DNA from: Escherichia phage MiataMamis
Direction: 5' to 3' (one strand)
Length of the DNA: 64,000 nucleotides
Sequence record: PP925834.1
Shown here: positions 52,734 through 54,459 of the stretch, piece after piece
Layout of the letters: every line of letters starts with the position of its first letter
How positions within the stretch are numbered: the stretch's first letter is position 1
Notes under the pieces: model-generated
Database searches by the model: none
Seen by the model: only the letters and a program-made list of their open reading frames with translations
What the model was told of the DNA's origin: nothing
Translations under genes and position numbers: made by a program

Positions 52734-53000
52734 TTAAGCTTTTTGCTCTTCGTTTTTAACGTGGTCAGGGTGCTGGCAACCCCACCGGAGCGAGATGAAT
52801 TTGCTAATAAGCTGGGGGCAAGCTACCGAAGGCGCATATATCCACGCATACCATTCAGGAAGCGTATCATTATACCCCATATGAATAAACACCCCAGTCA
52901 TCACCGCCATACCTATGTTTGACCATAGCTTAGATTGGGACACTTTCGTAGGGTCATCAGATGCCGCAACCAGTCCCCATAAAAACTGAGTTAGTTTCAT
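52734..53000 (-). CDS. small membrane protein, about two TM segments (88 aa); holin-like candidate
   Basis: Hydrophobic segments LWSNIGMAVMTGVFIHMGY and WYAWIYAPSVACPQLISKFISL; charged C-terminus. Confidence 0.5.
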   Translation of the reverse strand: MKLTQFLWGLVAASDDPTKVSQSKLWSNIGMAVMTGVFIHMGYNDTLPEWYAWIYAPSVACPQLISKFISLRWGCQHPDHVKNEEQKA

Positions 53001-53011
53001 TTACCCTCTTT

Positions 53012-54058
53012 TTAAGCATAAGATATAGTGATCCATTGACCATTTACAAGTTTTTGGATAGCACCTGTCCAGTAATCACCTTGATAAGGGTGTTTATAAG
53101 CGTAGTTACCCGAGCACATCACATGTCCAGGGTAAACTCTTGACTCTCTGTAGGTGGTTTTGAAACGGTTTGCTATCCTCACATCATCAACCCCTCTGCT
53201 GGGCATAGGAACAGTAAGGTTACCACTACCGTCTGCGCTGTTACCATTTACCCTGCGGACCACGTTTCTTCCACCAACTGTTGCATATTGGCCCCTGACG
53301 GTTTCATCGTTACAATCAACTCTTCCACCTATTTGAGCGCTTCCACAGGATTGTTGTCCATTAACAGTGGCTCTTGGTATAGTAGCTGCATTGGCATTTG
53401 TAGAGGAACTTTTTGCGTCGTTGCATTCAAGATTTCCTTGGATAGCCAGTCTTGCACGGTTGGCAGTTATAGCATTGAGCTTCATAGCTGAAAACACAGG
53501 CTGCCCACCAGAAGGTTGAAATCTCCAACGGAAACCGTCTATTTGGTGAGAGGGATCATCAAGGTCTGTGCCGTCAGCACCACCGATGTTGTCCATAATC
53601 CAGAAATCCATCATCGTCTTGTCTGAAGTTATGGTGGTGTATATCGCCGCACTGTCTGTTGACGCGGATGCAAACTCGATTCTTTGAAGACCTAAAGTTT
53701 GAGTCTGGATCATTGTGTCTCCAGCCTTGTCAACATAAAGGTCATCCATTTCTTCAGGCGAGTATACATTGAGAACTTGACGTGCAGCAGCTTTGTCTGG
53801 AACGTCTGCCAGATTATTAGTGACCCTTAAGAATCTATTATCCCATCCTGGGACAACATCTTCTGTTAAATGCTTTAACCACGCAGAAAGCATGTGAAGT
53901 TCAAAGTTAACAACTTCACATGCCACTCTTTGTGTCATATCCCAACCTTTCAGTCTCTCTTCTTTTTTTGGTTGGGACTTATTCAATTCTCCCGTATTTT
54001 CAAGCACAACATCCTGATTGGCCCAAATATCAAGAGGGATAACTGGTTTAGTCATCAC
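53012..54058 (-). CDS. tail fibre / receptor-binding protein, paralog 1 (348 aa)
   Basis: Homologous along its length to 55070..56110 (shared N-terminus PLDIWA/PLEIWA, KAGDTM motif, C-terminus LVNGQWIT(I/V)(S/N)YA). Confidence 0.75.
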   Translation of the reverse strand: MMTKPVIPLDIWANQDVVLENTGELNKSQPKKEERLKGWDMTQRVACEVVNFELHMLSAWLKHLTEDVVPGWDNRFLRVTNNLADVPDKAAARQVLNVYSPEEMDDLYVDKAGDTMIQTQTLGLQRIEFASASTDSAAIYTTITSDKTMMDFWIMDNIGGADGTDLDDPSHQIDGFRWRFQPSGGQPVFSAMKLNAITANRARLAIQGNLECNDAKSSSTNANAATIPRATVNGQQSCGSAQIGGRVDCNDETVRGQYATVGGRNVVRRVNGNSADGSGNLTVPMPSRGVDDVRIANRFKTTYRESRVYPGHVMCSGNYAYKHPYQGDYWTGAIQKLVNGQWITISYA

Positions 54059-54144
54059 GTTCTCCTGAGAAAATTCCTTAGGACTATTTTAACACTTTAG
54101 TGAACAAAATGCAAGAACGGAGTCCTTTCCGTCCTGACCTTTGT

Positions 54145-54459
54145 TTACCTTTTGCTATGCTCTACAAGCATGTGCAAAATCTTTTGTACATCAGCTCTGA
54201 TGCCGGAGACATCTGTCCTAACATCCTGCTTAAGGTCGTTAATATCGGCCTCTAGCTTGCTTAACCGGGTCTCGATAATAGAATCAAGTTTATCTTTTGT
54301 AACCATACTGTTTTTCACTAAGATGAGGTCTTTCTCCAGTTCATCCAACCTCTTGGAAATGCCTTTCCATTTGGTGTGCCACTGGTTGAAAGCCCATACA
54401 CAGATCGGGACAACGGTACCCATGCAGATACCGTACAATGCCGCCAAATCCAACTCCAC
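54145..54459 (-). CDS. membrane-anchored coiled-coil protein (104 aa); Rz-like spanin or holin candidate
   Basis: N-terminal TM segment ALYGICMGTVVPICVWAF followed by charged heptad-like region. Confidence 0.55.
   Translation of the reverse strand: MELDLAALYGICMGTVVPICVWAFNQWHTKWKGISKRLDELEKDLILVKNSMVTKDKLDSIIETRLSKLEADINDLKQDVRTDVSGIRADVQKILHMLVEHSKR

Follow-up and report, generated by a model that had tools for sequence, protein, structure and literature searches.

Two small membrane-associated proteins, probably late, encoded within the baseplate and tail-fibre module of Escherichia phage MiataMamis and its relatives: candidates for a role in lysis timing

The stretch of Escherichia phage MiataMamis analysed here (PP925834.1, 64,000 nucleotides; hereafter the window) encodes, within its tail-fibre cluster, two small proteins that are the subject of this report: one of 104 amino acids (aa), the orthologue of rV5 gp31, and one of 88 aa, the orthologue of rV5 gp29. 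We refer to them as gp31-type and gp29-type (Table 1). A 4.2-kb segment around both open reading frames (ORFs) shares 97.5-98.8% identity with more than 100 GenBank genomes of Vequintavirus, and by its sequence the source is a Vequintavirus, i.e., a member of the rV5-like E. coli myophage group that includes BASEL phages such as JohannBauhin. Annotation of both ORFs goes back to the rV5 paper (2013); in the BASEL annotation they are bas53_0036 (gp31-type) and bas53_0038 (gp29-type). It is well supported that the two proteins are conserved, probably late, located outside the virion and associated with the inner membrane.

A sequence-only reading of the window had singled out these ORFs as small membrane proteins interleaved with fibre genes, and possibly as lysis or exclusion genes. 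Both ORFs are real, given their good Shine-Dalgarno sites on the minus strand, their identical annotation in relatives and their conservation. The interleaving is also borne out. Between ~45 kb and 64 kb of the window every gene lies on the minus strand, where the transcription order is a baseplate wedge J-like protein, a 228-aa baseplate protein, a 690-aa fibre protein, a first short tail fibre (STF1), the tail-fibre assembly chaperone (TAP), gp31-type, a second short tail fibre (STF2), gp29-type, a 581-aa fibre protein and an 1878-aa fibre protein. The gp29-type gene is preceded by the Shine-Dalgarno sequence GAGGG before its ATG at 53000, and the Shine-Dalgarno sequence of the following fibre gene (the rV5 gp28 type) overlaps the gp29-type stop codon. 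The gp28-type gene is thus translationally coupled to gp29-type.

In the rV5 annotation, gp29 and gp31 fall within transcription unit 27-81, with the predicted late promoter P030 between gp31 and gp30 and the terminator t028 after gp28. Counterparts of both elements were identified in the window, where the P030-like motif (…AAAGTGTTAAAATAGTCC…) lies in the 86-nt gap between gp31-type and STF2, and both genes are co-oriented and tightly packed inside structural operons. A terminator-like hairpin was also located just past the gp31-type stop codon by a consensus scan, although such hairpins are no more numerous than in shuffled sequence. Based on the motif-predicted promoter and the terminator, both proteins are probably made late, from tail-fibre operons.

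Both ORFs are clearly genuine genes under purifying selection. The comparison used relatives that are 45-80% identical, in which the chaperone and fibre neighbours are only 44-48% identical. The proportion of synonymous differences (pS) is saturated at 0.86-0.93 in the gp31 and gp29 comparisons, and the proportion of nonsynonymous differences (pN) is 0.29-0.30 for gp31, 0.13-0.21 for gp29 and 0.33-0.36 for the chaperone and STF2. The evolutionary rate of gp29 is 2-3 times lower than that of the fibre and chaperone genes around it, and gp29 is 68-80% identical in loci where the chaperone, STF2 and gp31 are only 44-50% identical (L019, L021, L022). It is the most constrained gene of its neighbourhood.

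Table 1. Features of the gp31-type and gp29-type genes and of their surroundings in the window, in transcription order for the genes.
Feature	Position	Strand	Evidence
Baseplate wedge J-like protein	58893-60383	-	
228-aa baseplate protein	between wedge J-like gene and 690-aa fibre gene	-	
690-aa deacetylase-type fibre protein	just before STF1 in transcription order	-	
STF1, first short-tail-fibre gene (rV5 gp33)	55070..56110	-	phrog_4465, E=2e-171
Tail-fibre assembly chaperone (Caudo_TAP, 194 aa)	54471..55055	-	PF02413, E=1e-11
Shine-Dalgarno GAGGAGG of gp31-type	54464..54470	-	4 nt before GTG start at 54459, read from sequence
gp31-type gene, 104 aa (rV5 gp31 orthologue)	54145..54459	-	phrog_5345, E=8e-49 over 1-104
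Predicted transmembrane segment of gp31-type, codons 3-24	54388..54453	-	Kyte-Doolittle 19-residue mean 1.6-1.9
Terminator-like hairpin just past gp31-type stop, 8 bp stem and T-rich tail	54114..54135	-	consensus scan
Counterpart of predicted rV5 late promoter P030	54071..54107	-	motif-based, rV5 Table S4 section C
STF2, second short-tail-fibre paralogue (rV5 gp30)	53012..54058	-	phrog_4465, E=8e-164
gp29-type gene, 88 aa (rV5 gp29 orthologue)	52734..53000	-	phrog_1322, E=3e-32 over 1-87
First hydrophobic helix of gp29-type (predicted), codons 22-43	52872..52937	-	family 15-residue hydropathy 1.68 (59 homologues)
Second helix of gp29-type (predicted), codons 49-72, Pro-kinked, amphipathic/hydrophobic, ends in conserved LRWG	52785..52856	-	
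Lateral fibre gene (rV5 gp28, 581 aa)	50979..52724	-	phrog_4549
Rho-independent terminator t028 closing the gp30-gp29-gp28 unit	50950..50971	-	scan and rV5 Table S4
1878-aa fibre protein	after 581-aa fibre gene in transcription order	-	

The gp31-type protein begins with a strongly hydrophobic segment (LDLAALYGICMGTVVPICVWAF, residues ~3-24), with a strongest 19-residue Kyte-Doolittle mean of 1.91, and rV5 Table S3 lists gp31 as "membrane protein, 1 TMD" (transmembrane domain). The rest of the protein is helical, and 73% of the a/d positions are hydrophobic in one heptad register. An AlphaFold2 model (pLDDT 87.8, pTM 0.70) places helices at residues 5-50 and 55-103, with a turn at a conserved SMVTKD motif. 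The confident prediction is thereby of a transmembrane (TM) helix joined to a hairpin of helices, and not of a single long rod. Hydropathy and heptad pattern agree with the sequence-only reading of an N-terminal TM segment plus a coiled-coil, the latter taking the form of a hairpin in the model. Residues flanking the TM segment are informative about orientation. In all 11 family members considered, the N-terminal flank contains no K/R and 1-2 D/E (the Aeromonas member has 0 D/E there), whereas the 20 residues that follow the TM segment include 3-6 K/R. By the positive-inside rule, the acidic, K/R-free N-flank and basic C-flank indicate an N-out/C-in arrangement. Thus, gp31-type is predicted to be a bitopic inner-membrane protein whose acidic N-terminus, very short, is extracytoplasmic, and whose helical hairpin of ~80 residues is cytoplasmic.

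Searches for relatives of gp31-type outside its own family returned little. Pfam gave only sub-threshold matches (EzrA, E=0.03; XhlA, E=0.025). More generally, scans of both proteins and of homologues against Pfam, NCBIfam and PADLOC yielded no more than noise from coiled-coil or TM regions below threshold. A phmmer search of 1.84 billion representative proteins recovered 13 relatives at E ≤ 0.001, none tied to a named family; most of these are TM-plus-helical proteins of ~100-110 aa, and a few are fragments or longer proteins matched only through a coiled-coil. The family is therefore tiny (these 13 cluster representatives) and phage-restricted. Foldseek comparison of the model with BFVD and PDB found nothing below E=0.37, and only generic helical hairpins. 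The architecture itself, an N-out TM helix followed by cytoplasmic helices, resembles that of ATP synthase subunit b, EzrA and ZipA. Together with the sub-threshold EzrA match, a homologue annotated as "ATP synthase subunit b", and the restriction of this tiny family without fold relatives to phages, this resemblance could point to some other late inner-membrane function of gp31 and gp29, in envelope biogenesis, cell division, energy state or a guard against premature lysis. We give such a function little weight, as no positive evidence indicates a specific target. Moreover, host-takeover genes are normally early and variable between related phages, unlike the genes described here.

The gp29-type protein is more difficult to interpret. 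AlphaFold2 predicts helices at residues 22-43 and 49-72, with low confidence (pLDDT 58.8), and the family profile gives the same helices. Across 59 homologues, the N-terminal region has a net charge of +2.7, the loop (NDTLPE) of -1.1, and the C-terminal region contains a mean of 4.6 K+R. These basic flanks and the acidic loop are compatible with a weakly hydrophobic hairpin in an N-in/C-in orientation. The charged tail (RWGCQHPDHVKNEEQKA) has a net charge of -1 in the window protein and about 0 on family average. The best 19-residue hydropathy of the window protein is only 1.05, no higher than in several soluble structural proteins of the same phage (capsid and tube proteins were compared); the family median is 1.38, and 14 of 59 members reach at least 1.6. 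Published predictions differ: the rV5 authors obtained no TMD for gp29 with TMHMM and Phobius, and the annotators of PVP-SE1 reported one TMD in the homologue PVP-SE1 gp42. The suggestion that the 88-aa protein has about two TM segments is supported only marginally. We predict that gp29-type folds into a two-helix hairpin of weak hydrophobicity, in which the N- and C-termini are both cytoplasmic and an acidic loop of 5-6 residues is periplasmic. Alternatively, it may be a peripherally associated membrane protein.

A signal peptide at the gp29 N-terminus was considered and rejected, because the hydrophobic stretch there spans only ~9-11 residues and is predicted to form an amphipathic helix. 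Metagenomic variants of gp29 (P0004-P0013), with lengths of 113-126 aa, have the same core and a C-terminal extension of 30-40 residues rich in Asp, Glu, Arg, Tyr and Ser. As the core is the same and the extension differs, the cytoplasmic tail appears to be a variable add-on. Two metagenomic relatives were named DUF2644 by their source, one of them with a precomputed PF10841 match. We rejected this assignment for the family, as an hmmscan of 22 members found nothing at E-values up to 10; no mention of the DUF2644 family was found in the literature.

Homologues are widespread. Homologues of gp31-type were found in 223 phage records and those of gp29-type in 373 (a separate listing for gp29-type contains 234). 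By profile, the two proteins are full-length members only of two uncharacterised families, phrog_5345 and phrog_1322, respectively. Relatives of both occur in Vequintavirus, Seunavirus, Certrevirus, Septuagintavirus and allied genera, and the range of gp29 also takes in the phi92/phAPEC8 group and Aeromonas Plateaulakevirus. The phages that carry these genes infect E. coli, Salmonella, Klebsiella, Pectobacterium, Erwinia and Aeromonas. Identities are 95-100% among Vequintavirus members and fall to 24-35% (gp31) and 46-56% (gp29) across genera of the Vequintavirinae. Orthologues include, besides those of rV5, genes of PVP-SE1 (gp44-gp43-gp42), CB7 (CB7_33-35), W70 (W70_110-108) and phi92 (gp149/gp144). 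Phi92 gp144 is a member of the gp29 family, and phi92 gp149 is distantly homologous to gp31 (hhalign E=2e-5, 75% probability; PHROG cross-match 1e-4).

Gene order was compared in GenBank relatives and in 42 analysed loci from IMG/VR (43 were fetched). Both genes lie inside the baseplate/fibre module in every relative examined, and the TAP chaperone gene is invariably followed by the gp31-type gene. Three layouts were distinguished. In Vequintavirus the order is STF - TAP - gp31 - STF2 - gp29 - fibre. In PVP-SE1, CB7/phiTE, W70, relatives from Erwinia, Klebsiella and Cronobacter, and Aeromonas phage 2L372X, it is STF - TAP - gp31 - a ~150-aa protein with four TM segments (4-TM; phrog_7451) - gp29 - fibre; manual inspection confirmed the full triad in phiTE and in one Erwinia-phage locus. 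Phi92-like phages have (sheath initiator or fibre) - gp29 - wedge J - baseplate - STF - TAP - gp31-like - tailspike. STF2 of Vequintavirus thus sits in the slot that is occupied elsewhere by the phrog_7451 gene, which was located in Seunavirus, Certrevirus and Septuagintavirus (L005 5312-5785, L006 5336-5794, L014 14906-15364). Taken together, the three layouts suggest that the ancestral state looks like a three-gene membrane cassette of gp31-like, 4-TM and gp29-like genes. In Vequintavirus, a duplicated short-tail-fibre gene with its own predicted late promoter seems to have displaced the 4-TM gene. No homologue of the 4-TM protein was found elsewhere in the window, where the only match is by chance (E=0.025, out-of-frame ORF 2691-2846).

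In Aeromonas phage 2L372X (NC_048770), we identified an unannotated ORF of 146 aa with multiple predicted TM segments between the gp31-like and gp29-like genes (L008 4496-4936). It has no PHROG or Pfam match; with it, the full three-gene cassette is present there too. Several database names in these families are unsupported, including "ATP synthase subunit b" (for a gp31 homologue), "serine protease" (for the 4-TM protein) and "structural protein". Phi92 gp149 (L009 8523-8864) and phAPEC8 gp089 (L007 8941-9276) are labelled "lipoprotein", yet both align to gp31 as TM-plus-helical proteins and are its distant homologues. As phAPEC8 gp089 contains no lipobox or Cys, the "lipoprotein" label of the phi92 and phAPEC8 homologues is unsupported as well.

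Location inside a structural module raises the possibility that gp31 and gp29 are minor virion components, either ejected membrane-active proteins or small baseplate subunits, which were missed because they are small and hydrophobic. Homologues are labelled "structural protein" in some GenBank records, and Table S6 of PMC11370258 names the gp29 orthologue W70_108 "virion structural protein", although it is not among the 28 proteins detected by mass spectrometry (MS) in Table 2 of that paper. (The PVP-SE1 locus tags in Table S6 are shifted by one relative to the GenBank gene numbers.) In addition, gp29 is expected from its sequence to yield few usable tryptic peptides. Published virion analyses point the other way. 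Shotgun MS of rV5 identified 19 virion proteins, with zero peptides of gp29 or gp31. In CB7 (26 proteins), CB7_31 and CB7_36 were each detected with 19 peptides, but CB7_32-35 were absent. Similarly, in W70 (28 proteins) W70_107 and W70_112 were detected, and W70_108-111 were absent; according to the record these are the gp29-like, 4-TM, gp31-like and TAP genes. Both flanking fibre proteins are abundant in the proteomes from which gp31 and gp29 are missing, and gp31 was not seen despite its many good tryptic peptides. The 3.3 Å baseplate of phiTE comprises nine protein species, none of them from the triad, though phiTE encodes the full triad. Models of the phi92 baseplate list gp143, 145, 146 and 147, and neither gp144 nor gp149. 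Consistent with this, no PDB chain (including 9cuy/9mjn and 21vq for phiTE and phi92) was matched by the gp31 or gp29 family profile. We therefore consider a place in the virion very unlikely. Detection as virion components was named in the sequence-only reading among the results that would speak against it; since neither protein was detected in three proteomes and two baseplate models, that objection does not arise. Published data suggest instead that both proteins stay in the membrane of the infected cell, much as the fibre chaperone is left behind.

The suggestion that gp31-type is an Rz-like spanin with an embedded or nearby lipoprotein partner can be compared directly with the spanins of this phage group. 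As in two-component spanins (lambda Rz/Rz1; rV5 gp67/gp66), an N-terminal TM helix is followed by a helical, heptad-patterned domain, and a homologue in the phi92 group weakly matches the "Rz-like spanin" family phrog_739 (E=1e-3). However, a canonical pair of overlapping inner-membrane (i-) and outer-membrane (o-) spanin genes lies directly upstream of terL in this group (bas53_0001/0002, rV5 gp67/gp66, LL12 gp66/gp65, CB7_252/253), and the authors of the CB7, LL12 and BASEL studies took this terL-adjacent pair as the Rz/Rz1 equivalents. The i-spanin of the group has 132 aa and one TM segment preceded by a basic flank (3 K/R before the TM), i.e., the reverse of the orientation predicted for gp31 in all 11 members. 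The o-spanin is a lipoprotein of 95 aa (MRVATLFIACLLLCGC…) with the lipobox LCGC, whose gene overlaps that of the i-spanin. The pair falls outside the 64-kb window, and thus could not be seen in the sequence-only reading. No homology between gp31 and the Vequintavirus i-spanin was indicated by hhalign (probability 0.9%), and no spanin match for gp31-type was found in Pfam, NCBIfam or PHROGs. The lipoprotein ORF that had been proposed as a check is also missing: the forward frames of 54100-54520 were all three free of a lipobox Cys, no frame holds a lipobox ORF inside or next to the gene, the embedded 48-aa ORF (54318-54464) has no lipobox, and neither has gp29. We conclude that, as far as sequence analysis goes, gp31 as an i-spanin is ruled out by its predicted topology, by the lack of an o-spanin partner and by the terL-adjacent pair, and we assign this reading almost no probability.

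Proximity to receptor-binding genes also led to the proposal that these proteins act in superinfection exclusion or receptor masking, as do T5 Llp and Cor of T1 and phi80. Small envelope proteins with such functions (Llp; Cor of T1, phi80 and N15; T4 Imm; HK97 gp15) are in some cases encoded next to receptor-binding genes, and the gp31-type and gp29-type genes adjoin fibre genes. Further, phrog_1322 is filed under "moron, auxiliary metabolic gene and host takeover", a category used by default for "membrane protein". T4 Imm and HK97 gp15 block DNA entry at the inner membrane, and an action of this kind is conceivable. Other features disfavour this proposal, and we regard it as very improbable. 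Llp and Cor are secreted lipoproteins, but neither gp31-type nor gp29-type has a signal peptide or lipobox, and the soluble domain of gp31 is predicted to be cytoplasmic. The PADLOC defence models gave only a chance-level match to the JetC coiled-coil (E=0.005, 12.9 bits). Exclusion genes are accessory, variable, and expressed early or from prophages, whereas both genes considered here belong to the core, evolve slowly and lie in operons predicted to be late, in phages that are strictly virulent. Every supergroup genome considered carries both, irrespective of host, and they are retained in phages whose hosts and receptors differ; gp29 is more conserved than the fibres.

Our favoured reading, which we hold tentatively, is that gp31 and gp29 most likely act in the control of lysis timing. 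Both would be made late from the tail-fibre operons and kept in the inner membrane of the infected cell. In such a scheme gp29 would be the better candidate for a holin or pinholin-type protein, being small, with a predicted N-in/C-in hairpin and a charged C-terminal tail, and gp31 could be a membrane-anchored regulator that works through its cytoplasmic domain. Small late membrane proteins of virulent Gram-negative phages, where characterised, are mostly lysis proteins. Linkage of the holin to other lysis genes is not obligatory, and holin genes are found among structural genes, far from the endolysin gene, in T4 (gene t, which adjoins the fibre chaperone gene 38) and P1 (the holin/antiholin genes lydAB, part of the darA operon; lydA is likewise unlinked). 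In the ~47-kb late block of this phage, strongly hydrophobic segments occur only in the two spanins, the tape measure protein and gp31. Lysis specialists stated that no positive identification of the holin was possible in V5-like phages. Holin candidates of the rV5 and BASEL annotators were selected on TM count only, and are encoded among small ORFs in another transcription unit (genes 82-163).

One such candidate is in the window. At 6424-6786 (minus strand), among the small ORFs of the unit with rV5 genes 82-163, we identified a homologue of the BASEL "putative holin", a protein of 123 aa with two strongly hydrophobic N-terminal helices followed by a charged region. The "putative holin" of rV5 itself, gp129, is a different, 78-aa protein. 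The statement that the only recognisable muralytic enzyme lies 20 kb away holds for the window, and refers to a SleB-like cell-wall hydrolase (Hydrolase_2; 33532-34029, minus strand) beside rIIA (31553-33532, minus strand); the T4-lysozyme-type endolysin (rV5 gp89) is, like the spanin pair, encoded outside the window. The N-terminus of the SleB-like hydrolase (MKIKIFAIILSALLSLPVVAAP) resembles a signal peptide or a signal-anchor-release (SAR) sequence. If exported without a holin, this enzyme would alter which holin or pinholin type the phage needs.

Comparison with characterised holins gives a mixed picture. The resemblance to T4 holin T and P1 LydA/LydB, which are late membrane proteins of small size with genes placed amid structural or fibre genes and far from the endolysin gene, is an analogy of position and function; no sequence likeness was found, and neither protein is matched by a holin family of Pfam, NCBIfam or PHROGs. 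T4 T is N-in/C-out with a large periplasmic domain, but gp31 is predicted to be N-out/C-in with a cytoplasmic domain, and its large cytoplasmic domain in this orientation matches, to our knowledge, no characterised holin. The gp29-type protein resembles class II holins and pinholins such as phage 21 S68 in its small size, predicted N-in/C-in two-helix hairpin and charged C-terminal tail, and in a first helix rich in Gly, Ala, Ser, Thr and Met. It differs from them in that it belongs to no such family, has no dual-start motif, is not encoded beside the endolysin and evolves unusually slowly. In addition, the pinholin tail is basic, but that of gp29 is net neutral on average. Classical holins are far more hydrophobic than gp29.

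Several further observations weigh against a role in lysis. Comparison with Pfam, NCBIfam, PHROGs and PDB linked neither protein to holins, antiholins or any other lysis family, and no holin-family match was found among 14+8 homologues. In the loci and relatives compared, neither gene lies beside an endolysin or spanin gene. The hydropathy of gp29 is barely above that of soluble proteins, in line with the rV5 predictions. Holins usually evolve fast, unlike gp29, which is the slowest-evolving gene of its neighbourhood; such slow evolution and a fixed place by a chaperone or wedge gene suit a morphogenetic factor at least as well. Finally, late timing is a prediction from promoter motifs, and small hydrophobic proteins may slip past virion MS.

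A morphogenetic role is the most probable alternative, although we judge it unlikely. Here gp31 and gp29 would be membrane-anchored factors for the assembly of short tail fibres or the baseplate on the cytoplasmic side of the inner membrane, and would then be left behind. Across subfamilies, the order STF-TAP-gp31 is invariant, and gp29, which always stands directly before a fibre or the wedge gene, shows translational coupling to that structural gene. These core genes evolve no faster than their fibre and chaperone neighbours, and gp29 does so 2-3 times more slowly. Both proteins are missing from virions, just as the TAP chaperone is, and the cytoplasmic helical domain of gp31 would face the compartment in which fibres fold. 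Precedents of a kind exist in T4, where gp57A is a coiled-coil helper of short-tail-fibre folding and baseplates have been seen attached to the membrane. By analogy, gp57A (which serves both short and long tail fibres) and Caudo_TAP are small helical proteins encoded with fibre genes and absent from virions. However, both are soluble, gp31 is membrane-anchored, and we know of no factor for fibre or baseplate assembly that is held in the membrane by a TM segment. Neither gp31 nor gp29 is homologous to Caudo_TAP, gp57A or other chaperones: a match to Caudo_TAP (PF02413) or a PHROG tail-fibre-assembly family was obtained only for the neighbouring 194-aa protein, and comparison with chaperone-related PHROGs gave only a sub-threshold match to fibritin (E=0.002). 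Shared gene order in related phages may be plain inheritance, and two lineages can do without the middle 4-TM gene. It is conceivable, if improbable, that gp31 and gp29, with the 4-TM protein in most genera, form a hitherto unrecognised inner-membrane platform, conserved throughout the supergroup, that tethers or organises assembly of the short tail fibres and baseplate on the cytoplasmic side, possibly coupling tail completion to lysis timing.

Two observations on the window and its relatives are of separate interest. GC skew changes sign at 38000-45000 (+0.10 to +0.15, vs about -0.1 elsewhere). This region is a plus-strand gene block between the fibre operon and the rIIA side, and matches JohannBauhin bas53_0041-0055. 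At least 16 unannotated GenBank records named "Campylobacter phage" (MG0656xx) give Campylobacter jejuni as host but share ~98% identity with this E. coli Vequintavirus, and their host attribution looks doubtful.

In summary, gp31-type and gp29-type are uncharacterised small phage membrane proteins, probably late. Judged by their sequences, both lack the defining features compared here for spanins, Llp/Cor lipoproteins, TAP chaperones and described holin families. A conserved membrane cassette inside the baseplate/fibre module, throughout the rV5 / phi92 / Plateaulakevirus supergroup, appears to be new, as does the displacement of its middle gene by fibre duplication in Vequintavirus. Phages of the rV5-like and phi92-like groups are common in therapy and biocontrol collections. 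Within the late block, gp31 and gp29 are the sole proteins with hydrophobic helices (weakly hydrophobic in gp29) that lack an assigned role. The practical yield would be limited either way. Should one of them prove to be a holin or to regulate lysis timing, a large phage group would have its lysis system completed, with a new holin family inside a baseplate module. Should they instead be assembly factors, no helpers of tail-fibre or baseplate assembly before them would have been anchored in the membrane.

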